Assembly (NCBI GenBank): GCA_964570625.1 | Contig: CAZMYW010000008.1 | Span: forward strand, 43,166 to 107,165 | Source: an uncultured Nitrospirota bacterium | GTDB lineage: Bacteria; Nitrospirota; Nitrospiria; 2-01-FULL-66-17 | Direction of reading: 5' to 3' | DNA: 64,000 bases | Part shown: piece after piece, positions 41,018-47,915 of the stretch | Layout: the number at the start of each line of letters is the position of its first letter | Position numbering within the stretch: the stretch's first letter is position 1 | Position numbers and translations under genes: made by a program | The notes under the pieces: model-generated | Seen by the model: only the letters and a program-made list of their open reading frames with translations | Databases searched by the model: none | Told to the model about the DNA's origin: nothing

Positions 41018-42326
41018 CGCTCGGCCGGCTCTGCTGCCGGTGGATGCGGCGCTCAAGTCCGTGCTCGCCGCCACTCGGTTCTTGGGTGCCGAACGCGTGC
41101 CCGTGACGGAAGCGCTGGGACGGGTGCTGGGCCAAGACATGGTCGCCACGCGCGATATCCCCCCTTGGGACAACTCGTCGGTCGACGGCTATGCCGTGCG
41201 CGCCGTGGATGTGGCGTCGGCGGCTCCGGATCGACCGGTCACGCTGACCGTGATCGAAGAAATCCCCGCGGGCCTCATGCCGACCAACACCGTGACGTCG
41301 GGGACGGCCGCGCGCATCATGACGGGTGCACCCATGCCGCTTGGCGCGGATGCGGTCGTGATGGTGGAGGAGACGTCGCTGGACAACGACCGGGCGCTGA
41401 TGCGTGCGGCGGCCGAGCCGGGCGAGTCGGTGCGCCGGCGCGGTCAAGACGTGCGGGAAGGGACCGTGGTGATCCCGGGGGGCCGTCGCTTACGACCGGC
41501 CGAGGTCGGCATGGTGGCCTCGTTGGGACACGCCGCCGTCACGGTCGGCCGGAGGCCGCGCGTGGGCATTCTCGCCACCGGGGACGAACTGATCGATCTC
41601 GGGGAACCGGAACGACCGGATCGCATCTATAACGTGAACAGCTATGCGGTGGCGGCACAGGTGTGCGAAGCCGGGGGAGTGCCCGTGGTCATGGGCATCG
41701 CGCGGGATACGCCGTCTTCGCTGCGTGCTGCGCTGGATGGCCTCGACGGCCTCGACGCGTTGATCGTGTGCGGCGGGGTATCGGTGGGGAAATTCGATTT
41801 TGTGAAGGACGTGTTGACCGAGCTGGGGATGGTCATGCAGTTCTGGCGCGTGGCCATGAAACCGGGGAGCCCGATGGCCTTCGGTTCGGTCGACGGGAGG
41901 CCGGTGTTCGGCTTGCCGGGTAATCCCGTGTCGTCGATGGTGACGTTCGAGGTGTTTGTGCGGCCGGCGCTCCTTCAGATGGCCGGAGCGACCGCCGTGG
42001 ATCGGCCCAGCCTCGTGGCGGAGTTGGTCGAACCGATCGACAAGGCGCCCGGTAAGACCCATTTCATTCGGGCGCGGGTCTGGCGAAACGGCCCGCGCGT
42101 GTGTGCGGCGTCGACGGGTTCGCAAGACTCCGGCGTCCTCACATCGATGGTCAAAGCCGAGGGATTGATTGTGCTCTCGCAAGACGCGGGTCGCGTCGAG
42201 GCGGGAGCGCTGGTTGATGTGCGCCTCCTCCAGGGAGAGAGGCAGCCCACTGAAGGAGGGGACGATGGCATTCGAGGCGTTTATTCTGGTCAACGTGACG
42301 GGCGATCACACCAAGAGCGCGTATAA
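41010..42326 (+). CDS. moeA: Molybdopterin molybdotransferase MoeA
   Basis: PPWDNSSVDGYA, RIMTGAPMP, TGDEL, GGVSVG.FD and KPG..FGLPGNPVS. Start uncertain. Confidence 0.93.
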   Translation: MGSARPALLPVDAALKSVLAATRFLGAERVPVTEALGRVLGQDMVATRDIPPWDNSSVDGYAVRAVDVASAAPDRPVTLTVIEEIPAGLMPTNTVTSGTAARIMTGAPMPLGADAVVMVEETSLDNDRALMRAAAEPGESVRRRGQDVREGTVVIPGGRRLRPAEVGMVASLGHAAVTVGRRPRVGILATGDELIDLGEPERPDRIYNVNSYAVAAQVCEAGGVPVVMGIARDTPSSLRAALDGLDGLDALIVCGGVSVGKFDFVKDVLTELGMVMQFWRVAMKPGSPMAFGSVDGRPVFGLPGNPVSSMVTFEVFVRPALLQMAGATAVDRPSLVAELVEPIDKAPGKTHFIRARVWRNGPRVCAASTGSQDSGVLTSMVKAEGLIVLSQDAGRVEAGALVDVRLLQGERQPTEGGDDGIRGVYSGQRDGRSHQERV

Positions 42327-42516
42327 GACGCTGACTCGCCTGGAAGGTATCAAAGGGGTCCACATGGTCACCGGGGTGTACGACTTGGTCGTCCAGGTGG
42401 CGGCGCAAGACCTCACCCACCTCGGAGACGTCATCCTCCCCAACATCCGTGCGGTCGACGGGGTCACGCAGACCATGACGTGTCTCGTGTTATCGCCGCC
42501 CGCTCCCCACCACTAA
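42265..42516 (+). CDS. Lrp/AsnC ligand-binding-domain-only protein
   Basis: AFILVNV, VTGVYDLVV and IRAVDGV..T.T; 83 aa with no HTH; GGAGG RBS. Confidence 0.8.
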   Translation: MAFEAFILVNVTGDHTKSAYKTLTRLEGIKGVHMVTGVYDLVVQVAAQDLTHLGDVILPNIRAVDGVTQTMTCLVLSPPAPHH

Positions 42517-42518
42517 CC

Positions 42519-44168
42519 GTGTTCGTCGGTCCGGTCGCTCGGTCTGTATTGGCCGCCGTCGGCGGCCTGCTTGCGGCTGCCGCATGTTCTCGGATGCCTC
42601 CGGCGGCCGAGTCGGTCGGGTTCGTGGATGTCACAGCGCGCGCGGGCGTGCGGGCGGTACACTCGAGCGGCGCCGACGGGCGGGCGTGGTACCCAGAGAC
42701 CTTCGGCGCGGGGGTGTGCGTGACCGACTTCGACGCGGACGACCGGCCCGACCTTCTGTTCATCAGCGGTCGGCGATGGGAAGATCCGGAACCGGGGCCC
42801 GGCGTGGCTGCATATCGCAACCGGGGAGATGGAACGTTCGAGGATGTGACTAAGGTATCTCGACTCAGCAAGTCCCACTACGGGATGGGCTGCGCGGCGG
42901 CCGACTATGACAACGACGGGCGCGAAGACGTGCTGCTCACCGGCCACGGCGGTCTGTCGCTGTTCCACAACGAGGGGGGCGGTCGATTCGCGGATGTGAC
43001 GGACGCCGCGGGAGTGGGCGACGCGGGCTGGAGCACGTGCGCCGTCTGGTTCGACGCGGACGCGGACGGACAGCTGGACCTGTTCGTGTGCCGCTACGTG
43101 GTCTGGTCGCCGGAGACCGACCGCGTCTGTCGTCTGGAGGGCCGCGTGAAAGTGTTCTGCGGTCCCGATCCGTATCCTCCTGATTCGCCCAGGTTCTTCC
43201 GCAACCTGGGCTCCGGCCGATTTGAAGACGTGACGGTTCGCGCCGGACTCGCCAAGCCGGGCAAGGCGCTCGGCGTCGCGATGCTGGACGCGGACGGAGA
43301 TGGTCGAGTCGATCTCTTCGTGGCGAACGATCAGATGCCGAACTATCTGTATCGCAACGCGAGCGACGGAACCTTCGAGGACTGGACCTCGAAACTCGCC
43401 CCCTGGCCCGGCCGGTTCGGCATGGCGCGCGCCGGAATGGGGATCGACGTGGATGATGCGCTCGGGCGCACCGTCATCGGTAACTTCATCGGCGAAGGGT
43501 TTGCGCTGTATCAGCGCGGGGACGACGGTCGCTTTCACGATCGCGTGCGAGACACCGGACTGTTCGGGCCGAGCCTTCCGTTCCTCACGTTCGGGCTCGT
43601 GTTCGTTGATGGGGATCTAGACGGGTGGCTGGACGTGGTGGCCGCCAACGGGCACGTGGACGCCAACCTGGCCCGCGCGCTCGATGGCGGGGCCCCGCAA
43701 GCCGAACGGCCGCTGGTGTTTCGCGGCAACGATGACGCCACATACGCAGAGGTCGGCGCAACGGTCGGGCTCAGCACCCCGTTTGTGGGTCGCGGCTTGG
43801 CGACCGCCGATCTCGATCTCGACGGCGATTCGGATCTGGTGTTTACCGAGAACAACGGACCGGCTCGTCTCTATCGCAATGGACTCGCAAAAGGACATTG
43901 GCTCAGGATCAAACCGGTCGGGGTATCGAGTAATCGCGACGGCGTGGGCGCGTTGGTTAACGTGACGGCGGGTGGGCGGACCCAGACGCGGATGGTCAGG
44001 ACCGGGTCGAGTTACCTTTCTCAGAGCGAACGTGCGGTGCTGTTCGGGTTGGGCAACGCCGCGTCGGTCGATGAGATCACGGTTCGCTGGCCCAGCGGGA
44101 CCATCGATCGATGGATGTCCGTACCAGCGGGGCAGCGGGTGACGCTGGTTGAAGGTTCAGGTCGGTGA
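42519..44168 (+). CDS. CRTAC1-family (FG-GAP/VCBS repeats + ASPIC/UnbV) lipoprotein
   Basis: Possible lipobox AAAC; repeated DFDADD, DYDNDG, DADADG, DADGDG, DGDLDG and DLDLDG loops; C-terminal GSSYLSQS..FGLG..VRWPSG. Confidence 0.88.
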   Translation: MFVGPVARSVLAAVGGLLAAAACSRMPPAAESVGFVDVTARAGVRAVHSSGADGRAWYPETFGAGVCVTDFDADDRPDLLFISGRRWEDPEPGPGVAAYRNRGDGTFEDVTKVSRLSKSHYGMGCAAADYDNDGREDVLLTGHGGLSLFHNEGGGRFADVTDAAGVGDAGWSTCAVWFDADADGQLDLFVCRYVVWSPETDRVCRLEGRVKVFCGPDPYPPDSPRFFRNLGSGRFEDVTVRAGLAKPGKALGVAMLDADGDGRVDLFVANDQMPNYLYRNASDGTFEDWTSKLAPWPGRFGMARAGMGIDVDDALGRTVIGNFIGEGFALYQRGDDGRFHDRVRDTGLFGPSLPFLTFGLVFVDGDLDGWLDVVAANGHVDANLARALDGGAPQAERPLVFRGNDDATYAEVGATVGLSTPFVGRGLATADLDLDGDSDLVFTENNGPARLYRNGLAKGHWLRIKPVGVSSNRDGVGALVNVTAGGRTQTRMVRTGSSYLSQSERAVLFGLGNAASVDEITVRWPSGTIDRWMSVPAGQRVTLVEGSGR

Positions 44169-44238
44169 GCGCCGAAAAAGACTGGTGAAGTCGCTTACCA
44201 GGGGTCTCGCAGAGTAAGATGTCGAGCGGGAGCATCCC

Positions 44239-47190
44239 ATGAGATCGACTCCAATCTGGAGTCCGCCGCACCAGAAGAGATTGCGACTGGCGGCCATCTG
44301 CGCGTTGGTCGTGACAACGTTAGCCGGTCCGTCCCTGGCGGTTGCCCAACTGTCCGAGCGGCCGGGTACGTCGACCGATACCTCGCTCGGGGCCAAAGAT
44401 GTGACCGGAAAATCGGTGAAGGATCGCCGCGTGCGCGTCGTCCACTCCGAGGACCCCACGGTCGAAGGTGGTTCGCGGTATCTGCAGGAAGTTGATCCCT
44501 GGCTGGCGTTTCAGCGCGGAAAGAACCTGACGCAACGGGAGTTTCGCGCCCGCGACGGCGCGTTCGGACGGGCCGGGTCGTTTTTCGAGCCGAAGTTGTT
44601 GGGGGATCGCGTGACGCCGCGTCTGGGCCGCGATCACGTCAATTCGTGCGGGCTCTGCCACGGGATCCCGTTTCGTGAGCCTGGGGCTGGCGGCAATATT
44701 CCCAAAGGAGCGGGAGAGGGACGGAACACCCCCCACTTCTTCGGCGGCGGGATGGTTGAGATGATCGGGCTGCAAACCCGCCTCAAGGTTCTCCAAGCCT
44801 GCGACTCCGCGCGCCGGGGATTCATTCACATCCGCGACATCCCCAAGGAGCCGATTCTGATCGGGCCGACTCCCGGTGCGTCGTCGATCAACTATGGATG
44901 GTGCGGCGACCGCAACCAGGACGGGGCGCCGGACCTCAACAATGTGTTCCGGGTGTGGTACGTGGACGAGGGTGGGCGCCGCGTCACCATGGACAGCAAC
45001 GGAGACGGGGTGGTCAATCTGCGCGACCCCGATGTGGCGGGCTACAACTTGGAGATGATGGCGTTCGGTTGGGGGGAGACCGAAGGGGCGATGGCTCCCA
45101 CGCTACGCGTGTTTTTCAACGATCCGATCGACACCCACACCGGGATGCAGGCCCATGATCCCACGATGCAGGTTGATGACGGATTGCACGGTGACGACCA
45201 GGCCGGCGACGGACTGGCCGCGGTTTCGATCGCCGGGGCGCGGCAGTTCGCGATCCACGCGCCGGCCGACCGGGGTCTTCGCGTCAACGACCGTGGCCTG
45301 AGCCTGGACGACCCCGACGGGGATGACGTGATCAACGAGATTTCCGAAGGGGATGTCGATCTGGTGGAGTGGTACATGTTGAACGCGCCGGTTCCCGGCG
45401 TCGGTCGGCAAACGGCACAGACCAGGCGGGGTCGCGCGGTGTTCGACACAGTCGGCTGTGCCACCTGTCACGTGCCTGATTGGCGGATTGAAGCGGCCAG
45501 TCCGGACCACTCCGATCGACACCAGCGGTACGACGGTGATCGACGGTTTTTCGATCTGTCGGTCGCGTACCGGGAACAGGCCGCACGCCTGGAAGGCGCG
45601 GTGACTCTCTTGGCGGATCAGAAGGCCGGACGCTGGATGCCGCGCCGCGGTGCCGCGACGGTCCACGGGATCTTCTCGGATTTCAAACACCATGAGATGG
45701 GCCAGGCATTCGCCGAGACCTTGTTCAATGGAGCGAAGGTAACCCGATTCCGCACGGCTCCTTTGTGGGGCGTCGGGAGTTCGGCACCGTACGGGCATGA
45801 CGGCGCCAGCCTGACCTTGGACGACGTGATCCGTCGACACGGCGGAGAAGCCGCGGAGGTGGCAGCGCGCTACCGTCGCGCGCCGGCGCAAGACCGGGAC
45901 GCGCTCGTCGGGTTTCTCCAGAGTCTAGTGCTCTATCAGGGCGACCACGTGCCGACTGACTTGAACGGAGACGGCGCAGTGTCGGAACATTTTATGGTTG
46001 CGGGACGAGACACCGGAGTGGAGCGATTCAACCCCGAATGGTTGTTTCGCGCGCCGTGCGCGATCGAAGGGCCGGCCCGTGCGCCTGATGGATCTGCGAT
46101 CACATCGTTCGCGTGCGTGAATGCGCCGGAGGCCTACGGGGAGTCGCTGGCCTGGCTTCGCGATGCGGACGACGACGGGTTCCCCGATCCGAGCGACCCC
46201 TGCCCCGCTGCAACCGGATACGCGACCGGATGCCCGGCGTCGACCGAAGCGGCAGCCGCGCTCGCCATCACACCTGCGAGCGACGTGGCCTCGACCGTGG
46301 CGTTAGCCGTGGACCCGCGGACGCCGCGCATCGTCTGGGCCGCAGGCACGGACGGGTGGGGCGTGCGGAGGAGTCTGGACGCCGGACGGACGTGGCGAAC
46401 GATGACGGTCGATCCGCGGGTGGCCCACGCCACGGCCGTGGCCGTCGATCCGAGCGATTCGAACGTGGTGTACGTCGGCTCGTCGTCGGGCGTGTTCGTC
46501 AGTCGCGATGGCGGAGCGACCTGGGCGCTGCGGGACGAAGGGATGAGCGATCCACGGGTATTCGCGCTCGCCGTCAATCTGCGCTCGCCCCATACCGTGT
46601 ACGCCGGTGGGTTCGGCGGACGGCTGTACCGTTCGACCGACGGCGGAGCGACCTGGGCGGAGACGCGGATCGGATCCGATGTGTACCGCGTCACCTCGTT
46701 GGCGGTGGATGCCGGCGACTCCAGTGTTCCTGCGTTGGAGAATCGAGCGAACGCCCTTTACGCGGGCACGAGCGGCGGCGGGGCGTTCCGAAGCGACGAC
46801 GGGGGGGGCACATGGCGGGCGCTGCCGGGTCTCTCGGAACGCATCGTGTACGCGATCGGTCTCGACCCGCGGATCCCCAGCACGATCTACGCCGGGACAC
46901 CAGCCGGCGTCTACCGCAGCCTGGACCGTGGCGGCGTCTGGACCCAAGCGGGACCCGGACCGTCGGTTCCGGTGTTGTGTCTGGCGGTCGATCCGGAGCG
47001 ACCGGCGGCGGTGCTGGTCGGGACCCCGGACGGGGTGATGGCGACGGCGGACGGCGGACTGACCTGGCGTCGCGGCGTTGGGATTGCAGCGGACGGTCCG
47101 GTCGTGTCGTTGGTGCTTGATCCGTGGAATCCGAACATGGCGTACGCAGCGACGTTCGGCGGGCGGGTGGTGGGCGGAACCGCGCGGTAG
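44239..47190 (+). CDS. Exported di-heme oxidoreductase (DHOR-like) fused to an Asp-box beta-propeller
   Basis: Signal peptide; CGLCH and CATCH; FRTAPLWGVG, YGHDG and RHGGEA; six SxDGGxTW-like boxes in the last ~300 aa. Confidence 0.8.
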   Translation: MRSTPIWSPPHQKRLRLAAICALVVTTLAGPSLAVAQLSERPGTSTDTSLGAKDVTGKSVKDRRVRVVHSEDPTVEGGSRYLQEVDPWLAFQRGKNLTQREFRARDGAFGRAGSFFEPKLLGDRVTPRLGRDHVNSCGLCHGIPFREPGAGGNIPKGAGEGRNTPHFFGGGMVEMIGLQTRLKVLQACDSARRGFIHIRDIPKEPILIGPTPGASSINYGWCGDRNQDGAPDLNNVFRVWYVDEGGRRVTMDSNGDGVVNLRDPDVAGYNLEMMAFGWGETEGAMAPTLRVFFNDPIDTHTGMQAHDPTMQVDDGLHGDDQAGDGLAAVSIAGARQFAIHAPADRGLRVNDRGLSLDDPDGDDVINEISEGDVDLVEWYMLNAPVPGVGRQTAQTRRGRAVFDTVGCATCHVPDWRIEAASPDHSDRHQRYDGDRRFFDLSVAYREQAARLEGAVTLLADQKAGRWMPRRGAATVHGIFSDFKHHEMGQAFAETLFNGAKVTRFRTAPLWGVGSSAPYGHDGASLTLDDVIRRHGGEAAEVAARYRRAPAQDRDALVGFLQSLVLYQGDHVPTDLNGDGAVSEHFMVAGRDTGVERFNPEWLFRAPCAIEGPARAPDGSAITSFACVNAPEAYGESLAWLRDADDDGFPDPSDPCPAATGYATGCPASTEAAAALAITPASDVASTVALAVDPRTPRIVWAAGTDGWGVRRSLDAGRTWRTMTVDPRVAHATAVAVDPSDSNVVYVGSSSGVFVSRDGGATWALRDEGMSDPRVFALAVNLRSPHTVYAGGFGGRLYRSTDGGATWAETRIGSDVYRVTSLAVDAGDSSVPALENRANALYAGTSGGGAFRSDDGGGTWRALPGLSERIVYAIGLDPRIPSTIYAGTPAGVYRSLDRGGVWTQAGPGPSVPVLCLAVDPERPAAVLVGTPDGVMATADGGLTWRRGVGIAADGPVVSLVLDPWNPNMAYAATFGGRVVGGTAR

Positions 47191-47197
47191 GTCGCGC

Positions 47198-47800
47198 TCA
47201 GTTCAGGTTGGGGTCGCGCGGCATGGTGGCGTAGACCGCGTGCCGAGGACCCAATGAACGCATCAGTTCCGGCCAGACCACCGTGGGATCGGCGTCGAAA
47301 ATCCACTTGGAGTCTGCCGGGACCACGATCCATGACTGGGTCGTTAATTCCCCGTCGAGTTGTCCAGCCGACCAGCCCGCGTACCCCGCGTATCCCCGAA
47401 AGACCGTGTCGACGACCCGCGACGAGACGGAATCGCCGTCCGACACGTCATCAGACGCCTCAGCCTCCGACACGAGCGACTTCAAGGTAGGCAGGTCCGT
47501 ACCCAGATACACGTCCGAAAATACGTGATGCGAGGATGGAGGCTCCCAGCCGGAGCGGATCAGGATCAGCAGGTGGTCGGGTTGGACGGGGCCTCCGGAG
47601 TAGATCACGTCGTCGCGTTCCGCTTCGGAGAGTTGATGGACGGCCTCGGTCAGGACGAGCTCGGTGGGACGGTTGATCACCAACCCCATGCTGCCGCGGT
47701 CGTTGTGCTCGCACAACAGGATCACGGATTGCCTGAAGTTGGGATCGTACATGCCGGGGCCGGCGATCAACAGCGCGCCTTTTTCGAGCACAGAACCCAT
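47198..47800 (-). CDS. YqgE/AlgH-family protein
   Basis: DPNFRQSVILLCEH, GLVINRP, GGPV and GYAGWSAGQL. Confidence 0.92.
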   Translation of the reverse strand: MGSVLEKGALLIAGPGMYDPNFRQSVILLCEHNDRGSMGLVINRPTELVLTEAVHQLSEAERDDVIYSGGPVQPDHLLILIRSGWEPPSSHHVFSDVYLGTDLPTLKSLVSEAEASDDVSDGDSVSSRVVDTVFRGYAGYAGWSAGQLDGELTTQSWIVVPADSKWIFDADPTVVWPELMRSLGPRHAVYATMPRDPNLN

Positions 47801-47870
47801 GTATTGATCGTATATCCGCGCTGAGTGAAAGTCCAGAGGGCGTGCCCGCGCCCGCGAGCGGCGCGGTTTC

Positions 47871-47915
47871 TTGACAAAGCCCACCCCCTCGGCTAGAGTC
47901 ACTTGGCCGGTGACT
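47871..47915 (+). promoter_or_regulatory. Sigma70 promoter with overlapping inverted repeat, upstream of the fatty-acid cluster
   Basis: TTGACA-N17-TAGAGT; AGTCAC-N7-GTGACT at 47897-47915. Confidence 0.65.

Follow-up and report, generated by a model that had tools for sequence, protein, structure and literature searches.

A predicted exported di-heme/Asp-box propeller fusion protein and its FG-GAP/ASPIC neighbour in an uncultured Nitrospirota bacterium

The window analysed here is a stretch of 64,000 nucleotides from contig CAZMYW010000008.1 of an uncultured Nitrospirota bacterium (assembly GCA_964570625.1). It carries an intact gene whose product was predicted, from the letters of the DNA and a list of its open reading frames (ORFs), to combine a c-type di-heme domain with an Asp-box beta-propeller (hereafter referred to as the original prediction). 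Our analysis bore this out: a di-heme c-type oxidoreductase domain is joined to an Asp-box propeller by an Ala/Pro/Thr-rich linker. Both heme attachment motifs, CGLCH and CATCH, were recovered from the translation by regular expression exactly where they had been placed, and no further CxxCH occurs in the protein. The six Asp-boxes were likewise present (SLDAGRTW, SRDGGATW, STDGGATW, SDDGGGTW, SLDRGGVW and TADGGLTW, starting at residues 712, 755, 799, 852, 894 and 936, respectively). All five Ca-type loops were found at their named places as well; four of them follow the strict pattern Dx[DN]xDG, but DPDGDD is only a degenerate version of it. From residue frequencies we estimate that a protein as long as this one would contain about 0.05 matches to this pattern by chance alone. 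In an alignment of 119 homologues the motif columns were invariant or nearly so, and therefore the motifs are not chance occurrences.

Sequence comparisons indicated that the fusion is real, rare and lineage-restricted, and they are consistent with a single origin. In a collection of 5.8 billion protein clusters, about 20 clusters share the architecture (65-82% identical, 968-1006 amino acids), next to three longer relatives with two propellers (1256-1320 amino acids, 46-52% identical) and hundreds of stand-alone relatives of about 650 amino acids, which are about 50% identical across the first two thirds of the protein. Among 61 genomes of the class, all seven from the family of the window, which span two genera, encode the fusion, as opposed to none of the 54 from 16 other families. 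The latter possess only stand-alone BNR propellers of 340-400 amino acids, 36-44% identical to the fused propeller. Clustering at 50% identity left just two among 1.84 billion representatives that span both domains. The architecture is thus as uncommon as had been supposed, being confined to one family of the class. It is, however, not wholly unannotated, since NCBI lists relatives of the fusion as 'di-heme oxidoredictase family protein'. In a tree of the N-terminal domain, all 19 BNR-fused proteins formed one clade (Shimodaira-Hasegawa-like approximate likelihood ratio test, SH-aLRT, 98), within which the single-propeller proteins (support 100) separated from the double-propeller proteins (support 98). 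The stand-alone family is hosted by Gemmataceae and other Planctomycetota, Acidobacteriota, Obscuribacterales/Melainabacteria, Wallbacteria, Omnitrophota and Armatimonadota.

The original prediction had also allowed for an assembly chimera or a read-through of two genes. To this explanation we assign practically no probability and regard it as excluded: the fusion is not an assembly artefact, because the same uninterrupted ORF recurs in seven assemblies that were made independently in several studies, and about 20 protein clusters contain it as well. In addition, the linker keeps its position among the homologues while it varies in length and sequence. The coordinates of the gene, its parts and its immediate surroundings are compiled in Table 1.

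Table 1 Features of the fusion gene and its upstream neighbour (window coordinates; residues refer to the fusion protein unless stated otherwise)
Feature	Coordinates	Strand	Basis
FG-GAP_3 x6 + UnbV_ASPIC (CRTAC1-like) protein, 562 amino acids, lipoprotein-type N-terminus (…LLAAAAC)	42480..44168	+	Pfam
70-bp spacer that separates the fusion gene from the upstream FG-GAP/ASPIC gene	44169..44238	.	window
Whole gene, 983-amino-acid di-heme (DHOR-type)/Asp-box propeller fusion, predicted exported	44239..47190	+	intact, open ORF
Putative signal peptide, Sec-type, residues 1-36: basic n-region, hydrophobic core, AVA/QL	44239..44346	+	by eye and alignment
Di-heme domain, residues 37-668: bCCP/MauG-type two-heme core with about 300 amino acids of beta-rich, Ca-loop-bearing insertions	44347..46242	+	AF2, Foldseek, Pfam
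Heme-1 attachment motif C137-G-L-C140-H141, presumed reactive (peroxidatic) heme	44647..44661	+	regular expression, alignment to CCP C51/C54/H55
Ca-type loop 1, DRNQDG, residue 224, family-wide	44908..44925	+	regular expression, alignment
Ca-type loop 2, DSNGDG, residue 252, in a 6-residue insertion exclusive to the fused clade	44992..45009	+	regular expression, alignment
Ca-type loop 3, DPDGDD, residues 358-363, degenerate	45310..45327	+	alignment
Heme-2 attachment motif C407-A-T-C410-H411, presumed electron-transfer heme	45457..45471	+	regular expression, alignment to CCP C197/C200/H201
RRHGGEA motif (R532-A538), invariant or nearly invariant in 119 sequences	45832..45852	+	His534 codon 45838-45840; profile alignment to 1eb7
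Ca-type loop 4, DLNGDG, residue 574, family-wide	45958..45975	+	regular expression, alignment
Ca-type loop 5, DADDDGFPDPSDPCP, family-wide	46162..46206	+	DADDDG 46162-46179 (residue 642), then DPCP
Linker, Ala/Pro/Thr-rich, about residues 666-684	46234..46290	+	unconserved alignment columns 714-745; low pLDDT
Seven-bladed BNR/Asp-box beta-propeller, residues 685-983	46291..47187	+	Pfam, NCBIfam, AF2, Foldseek, PDB profile search
Six Asp-boxes	46372-46395, 46501-46524, 46633-46656, 46792-46815, 46918-46941, 47044-47067	+	regular expression

Taken together, sequence profiles and structural models place residues 37-668 as a remote, double-sized member of the superfamily of bacterial cytochrome c peroxidases (bCCP; CCP for the peroxidase in general) and MauG, on the DHOR (DUF1111) branch. 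The Pfam match to DHOR/DUF1111 (PF06537; 46.3 bits vs a cut-off of 22, E 2.9e-12) is limited to residues 479-563 and spans only positions 408-499 of the 499 in the profile, and a likeness to the full-length model with its N-terminal heme domain was not found. The first 364 mature residues, heme site 1 included, matched no Pfam family at E <= 5, and Pfam CCP_MauG gave no match to the fusion protein. Over residues 499-538, NCBIfam returned weak matches to a MauG-like and an MbnH family (24.5 bits vs a cut-off of 340 and 17.6 vs 363). When the full-length AlphaFold2 (AF2) model was used in Foldseek, only propeller matches were obtained, and a separate model of the N-terminal domain was needed to reveal the kinship with peroxidases. 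This model of the di-heme domain alone, which was calculated with 100 sequences, reached a mean predicted local distance difference test (pLDDT) of 86.3 and a predicted template modelling score (pTM) of 0.90. Its top 23 matches in the PDB were all di-heme peroxidases, MauG or MbnH-like proteins (probability 0.85-1.0), with a template modelling (TM) score to the target of just 0.26-0.30 over 215-255 columns.

The same genome encodes a canonical DHOR of 566 amino acids (G000:C9:21610-22494; L009 1450-3150), which is 31-34% identical over the second heme part and carries LFHGGEA as a motif matching RHGGEA of the fusion. A further ORF of 227 amino acids (G000:C4:81102-81722) also matches the second heme part and may be a fragment. 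Some homologues of the stand-alone type reach about 970 amino acids (L007 7001-9922, protein P0059; P0124), and in these another, unannotated C-terminal extension of about 320 amino acids replaces the BNR propeller. The C-terminus of the family has therefore taken up other modules, too.

For assignment of the heme ligands, the family profile was aligned to Pseudomonas aeruginosa CCP (1eb7) at three blocks, with a chain numbering that reproduces the residues of the literature. In this alignment, H141 and H411 coincide with H55 and H201, the proximal ligands of heme 1 and heme 2 of CCP, and both motifs (C137xxC140H141 and C407xxC410H411) were invariant in the 119 sequences. H534, which is equally invariant (119/119), aligns with M275, the sixth ligand of the high-potential heme, and this supports the proposal of the original prediction that the His of RHGGEA is an axial ligand. 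The position is hence occupied neither by Met as in CCP nor by Tyr as in MauG, and from its alignment with Met275 we infer that heme 2 is of the bis-His type (His411/His534). The ligands of the inter-domain Ca2+ site of CCP appear to be kept in the fusion protein, as N163, S515 and P517 align with N79, T256 and P258. Residue 515 is Thr in most homologues, and N163 and P517 show little or no variation. E160 stands at the place of the inhibitory distal His of CCP (H71), for which the fusion has no counterpart. W510 is invariant, yet it aligns with Arg251 of CCP, and the FWDGR block (Trp94/Trp93) could not be aligned.

Four of the five Ca-type loops (residues 224, 358, 574 and 642) are conserved in the stand-alone homologues of about 650 amino acids; the loops are a trait of the family and no peculiarity of the fusion protein. 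In loop 3, the nearly invariant G363 of the family consensus DPDxDG is replaced by Asp (G363D, codon 45325-45327), which could weaken the third Ca site. The likeness of DADDDG..DPCP to thrombospondin-3 holds for the motif, but not for the family (Pfam TSP_3 E = 1.3). Membership of the loops in the thrombospondin type-3, EF-hand or dockerin families was rejected in general: Pfam returned nothing significant, leaving just the Dx[DN]xDG motifs. The idea that extra cysteines could form disulfides fared better, as Cys188/222, Cys607/626 and Cys655/665 behave as three co-varying pairs in the alignment. Of the 20 long proteins (>900 amino acids), 19-20 possess these pairs, which the 99 stand-alone ones mostly lack, a pattern that clade-specific disulfides of an exported protein would be expected to show. 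The start of the mature protein, QLSERPG (AQLSERPG), is conserved in all aligned homologues and is preceded by variable, hydrophobic leaders. Together with the co-varying cysteines, this conserved end behind variable leaders suggests that the fusion protein is exported.

The linker, with pLDDT values below 50 at residues 670-681 in the AF2 model, probably behaves as a flexible tether. For the propeller behind it, sequence and model point to a seven-bladed domain of the Ycf48/3b7f type. Pfam matched BNR, Sortilin-Vps10 and PSII_BNR, the last with 28.1 bits vs a cut-off of 27, but no single stretch passes on its own. The match to the NCBIfam family 'F510_1955 family glycosylhydrolase' stayed below threshold (107 bits vs a cut-off of 175). 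The closest sequence matches in the PDB were 3b7f (E 1e-15) and Ycf48 (E 6.5e-9), and Foldseek returned single GH74 propellers, 3b7f, DAIP and seven-bladed WD40 propellers with TM scores to the target of up to 0.81 (0.75-0.81 for the WD40 propellers). The Asp-boxes are spaced by 42-53 residues. The AF2 model displays seven four-stranded blades, except that the last one is formed by three strands and, in the subclade of the window, lacks the Asp-box and the fourth strand (47068-47190). The description as a six-Asp-box propeller was thus right with respect to the boxes, but the blades number seven, the seventh being without an Asp-box. A sister subclade (P0013-P0015) retains the seventh box as YRSxDGGxxW. 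All members of the window's own subclade stop about 15 residues before those of the sister subclade, and the short C-terminal end is therefore natural. An identity of the propeller as GH74 enzyme or sialidase was considered and rejected, the likeness being restricted to the level of repeat and fold.

Further BNR propeller proteins are encoded in the same genome, among them a stand-alone propeller of 338 amino acids that shares 39% identity with residues 731-943 of the fusion (L098, G000:C27, 5071-6087) and, near to it, a protein of 658 amino acids (L098 7151-9127). Such proteins are the likely source pool of the fused propeller.

Directly upstream of the fusion gene lies a gene with Pfam matches to FG-GAP_3 (E 4.9e-40) and UnbV_ASPIC (E 4.7e-20), the true start of which may be the GTG at 42519. 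An ortholog (68-83% identity) was found within the same small cluster as the fusion gene in 7/7 family genomes, directly adjoining it in some and two genes off in most. In the majority of relatives, the two positions in between are taken by translationally coupled genes for membrane proteins of 382-387 and 457-460 amino acids, the latter polytopic (L001 5477-8004; L002 5475-8008), and neither protein matched Pfam, NCBIfam or PDB. Both genes are missing, with just a short spacer in their place, from the window, a congener (L018) and a member of the sister genus (L022), and the sole counterpart in the window's own genome is a 25%-identical paralogue elsewhere. This distribution suggests repeated loss or gain of the membrane-protein pair. 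At the other end, the stop codon of the fusion gene lies 7 nt from the end of a convergent DUF179 gene (47198-47902, minus strand). A promoter scan of positions 42000-47600 yielded no promoter-like sites, and terminator-like sites were at background level.

The combination of these gene types recurs at some other loci. Of the three double-propeller relatives, two have FG-GAP_3 genes as flanking genes. On a short unrelated contig (L039 224-3686), a stand-alone homologue of about 650 amino acids (52% identity) overlaps by 11 nt the start of a CRTAC1-like FG-GAP/ASPIC gene of 645 amino acids (500 bits in hmmsearch), which would imply translational coupling of the two. In another family of the class (L101, G009:C70, 2301-9982), the three parts are encoded side by side by individual genes, namely those for a BNR protein of 774 amino acids with 10 Asp-boxes, a c554-like/TPR protein of 734 amino acids with four CxxCH motifs, and an FG-GAP/UnbV_ASPIC protein. 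This cluster is preceded by an FGE-sulfatase-like gene; such genes also adjoin FG-GAP/ASPIC genes in another locus (L102) and sit near the fusion in L099. Finally, in a high-GC metagenome-assembled genome (L095 2698-7382), a BNR/Asp-box gene of 899 amino acids is located directly upstream, and on the same strand, of a stand-alone di-heme homologue. A general FG-GAP/ASPIC link for the whole stand-alone family was also considered and rejected; such a link is limited to the fused clade and a small number of further cases.

We propose with moderate confidence that the gene encodes an exported, peroxide-driven two-heme oxidoreductase, which is tethered to a partner-binding propeller and works together with the FG-GAP lipoprotein. 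In such a scenario, heme 2, low spin with its two His ligands (His411/His534), would pass electrons, while heme 1 (His141) would bind H2O2 or a similar small oxidant and form a high-valent species, which may then oxidise the bound substrate. The propeller would not be an enzyme itself but would dock a macromolecular partner. The co-encoded FG-GAP lipoprotein is the most likely candidate for this partner or for a membrane anchor, and the two proteins together would then make up a compact exported redox unit of the cell envelope.

Several points weigh against this proposal. The likeness of the heme domain to solved peroxidases is weak (profile E 4e-4, TM about 0.3), and the AF2 model is least confident near heme 1 (pLDDT <50 for residues 115-165). 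Among about 75 stand-alone loci, searched by tblastn and with a hidden Markov model (HMM) built from the orthologues, neighbours were not conserved and a CRTAC1-like gene was adjacent in just one; the FG-GAP link may accordingly be specific to the fused lineage. No activity has been demonstrated in any member of the subfamily of about 650 amino acids, in any bacterial CRTAC1-like protein or in any such propeller outside Ycf48, and for this reason oxidant, substrate and partner are all inferred. Literature searches likewise retrieved no functional studies of the PF06537/DHOR or the bacterial UnbV/ASPIC subfamilies.

Other roles have to be weighed against the peroxide-driven oxidoreductase with an FG-GAP partner. 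The protein might be a MauG/MbnH-like enzyme whose bis-Fe(IV)-type state oxidises or cross-links Trp/Tyr residues of the FG-GAP/ASPIC lipoprotein or of a client held by the propeller, which we regard as unlikely. MauG and the MbnH-like 6e1c are among the Foldseek matches, and the NCBIfam matches over residues 499-538 point in the same direction. A dedicated partner gene is conserved nearby, and a tethered protein-binding module would suit a macromolecular substrate; the substrate complex of MauG itself includes a seven-bladed propeller subunit. However, His stands in the alignment where MauG has Tyr as sixth ligand of heme 2, the NCBIfam scores are far under their cut-offs, and most stand-alone homologues lack the partner gene. 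Handling of metals, in which Fe (or Mn) would be oxidised or reduced at the surface of the cell and the propeller would stand in for a separate DUF1513 propeller, appears quite unlikely. The C-terminal heme region does fall into Pfam DHOR, and operons with DUF1111 hold EfeO-like proteins and a DUF1513 beta-propeller, the members of which are co-fit and presumed to act in iron uptake (bioRxiv 10.1101/072470; PMC3143127). Yet neither the window nor seven related loci have an imelysin/EfeO, FTR1 or DUF1513 gene close to the fusion, the propeller belongs to the BNR family without a DUF1513 match, and the genome already has a separate canonical DHOR paralogue.

A plain periplasmic cytochrome c peroxidase for detoxification of H2O2, for which neither the propeller nor the neighbouring gene would matter, would account for the conserved heme motifs and Ca-site ligands of CCP and for the mostly monocistronic stand-alone homologues. 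It is nevertheless distinctly improbable in our view, given that the domain is twice the size of CCP with His instead of Met aligned at the sixth-ligand position and no Pfam CCP_MauG match, and that the fusion and the FG-GAP cluster are kept across two genera at 65-82% identity. Among the specific rival roles, the least support was obtained for that of the original prediction, in which a glycan or peptide polymer outside the cell is bound by the propeller and oxidatively attacked by the di-heme domain. We consider this role very improbable. In its favour, the propeller finds its best structural matches in xyloglucanases of GH74 and in 3b7f, a 'BNR glycosyl hydrolase', the sub-threshold F510_1955 match names a glycosylhydrolase, and the protein is predicted to be exported. 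The resemblance is, however, one of repeat and fold, at 18-23% identity, and propellers of WD40, Ycf48 and DAIP match about as well. GH74 activity relies on two tandem seven-bladed propellers that form a cleft and contribute one catalytic Asp each. Even the double-propeller relatives of the fusion show repeat-level GH74 matches only and do not align with GH74 from end to end. CAZyme, TonB and sugar-transport genes were absent from the surroundings of the fusion in the window and the related loci, and a glycan-binding module with oxidative attack on extracellular polymer thus remained unsupported.

With the peroxide-driven, partner-binding oxidoreductase as the preferred reading, the main value of the finding is that of a gene-fusion clue: the parts are of known kinds, a DHOR-type di-heme enzyme and a BNR propeller, and their combination is new. 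As a heme domain joined to a propeller is a familiar design, the finding is useful and not startling. It links three large exported families without known function, that is, the DHOR-like di-heme proteins of about 650 amino acids, the CRTAC1-like FG-GAP/UnbV_ASPIC proteins and the Ycf48-like BNR propellers of non-phototrophs. In this lineage the link is physical, two families being connected by fusion and one by conserved gene clustering, and other genomes hold the same three parts as neighbouring genes. Read as a 'Rosetta stone', the fusion might point to an exported redox module that is widespread but unrecognised and is made up of CRTAC1-like FG-GAP/UnbV_ASPIC proteins, c-type heme proteins and beta-propellers, in which the heme enzyme would oxidise or cross-link the FG-GAP partner post-translationally or process a small reactive oxygen or nitrogen species passed on inside the complex, a generalisation that we offer as speculative and rather unlikely. 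The c-type heme proteins of such a module may be DHOR-like di-heme, c554/TPR multi-heme or similar to the gamma subunit of hydrazine synthase (HZS). If true, such a module and the hydrazine-synthase-like clusters would have converged on a similar organisation. The locus provides a concrete, testable hypothesis on a partnership and a compact system for it.

Compared to known systems, the fusion shares with DHOR/DUF1111 (PF06537) the two CxxCH motifs and the C-terminal block FRTxPLWGxG…PYxHDG…HGGEA. It differs in its first about 400 residues, which comprise heme 1 and the Ca-loop insertions and match no Pfam model, in the lack of the imelysin/EfeO/DUF1513 operon context, which is typical but not strictly defining, and in its C-terminal propeller. 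The bCCP/MauG/MbnH proteins (1eb7, 1nml, 3l4m-type MauG and 6e1c) are the sole solved folds that match the N-terminal domain, with alignment of both heme sites and the Ca2+-site ligands. These proteins, however, measure about 320 amino acids compared to about 630 for the domain of the fusion, the TM score is only about 0.3, and the fusion has His at the sixth-ligand position of heme 2, no alignable Trp94/Trp93 and no His71.

A parallel to the entire arrangement is found among distant homologues of hydrazine synthase, in which fusions of a propeller with a CCP-like di-heme domain cluster with a 'CRTAC1 family' FG-GAP gene (PMC12758564, 2025). The likeness to HZS beta-gamma thus extends to a di-heme domain of the CCP-like type, the second heme of which is bis-His in HZS-gamma, to the seven-bladed propeller and to the CRTAC1-family neighbour (PMC12758564). 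In contrast, the propeller is N-terminal there and C-terminal in the fusion, and the subfamilies of both propeller and di-heme domain differ. A homologue of the HZS alpha subunit was not present near the fusion in the window or the related loci, and HZS chains occurred neither among the PDB profile matches at E <= 1 nor among the 50 best Foldseek matches. Orthology to hydrazine synthase was rejected on the grounds of the reversed domain order and the missing HZS match, and the parallel is best seen as an analogy.

With Ycf48/HCF136 and 3b7f the fusion has in common a seven-bladed Asp-box propeller of about 300 amino acids. The NCBIfam model PRK13684 scored far below equivalog level (32.2 bits vs a cut-off of 326), and, unlike Ycf48 and 3b7f, the propeller constitutes the C-terminal domain of a heme enzyme and has lost the seventh Asp-box. 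From GH74 enzymes the fusion differs by its single propeller, and the matches cover one GH74 propeller at about 20% identity. Finally, cytochrome cd1 nitrite reductase and the quinohaemoprotein dehydrogenases also have a c-type heme domain covalently joined to a periplasmic beta-propeller. In these enzymes it is the propeller that bears the active-site cofactor, heme d1 or pyrroloquinoline quinone (PQQ), whereas no cofactor site is evident in the propeller of the fusion, and the heme domain of the latter is of the di-heme peroxidase type.

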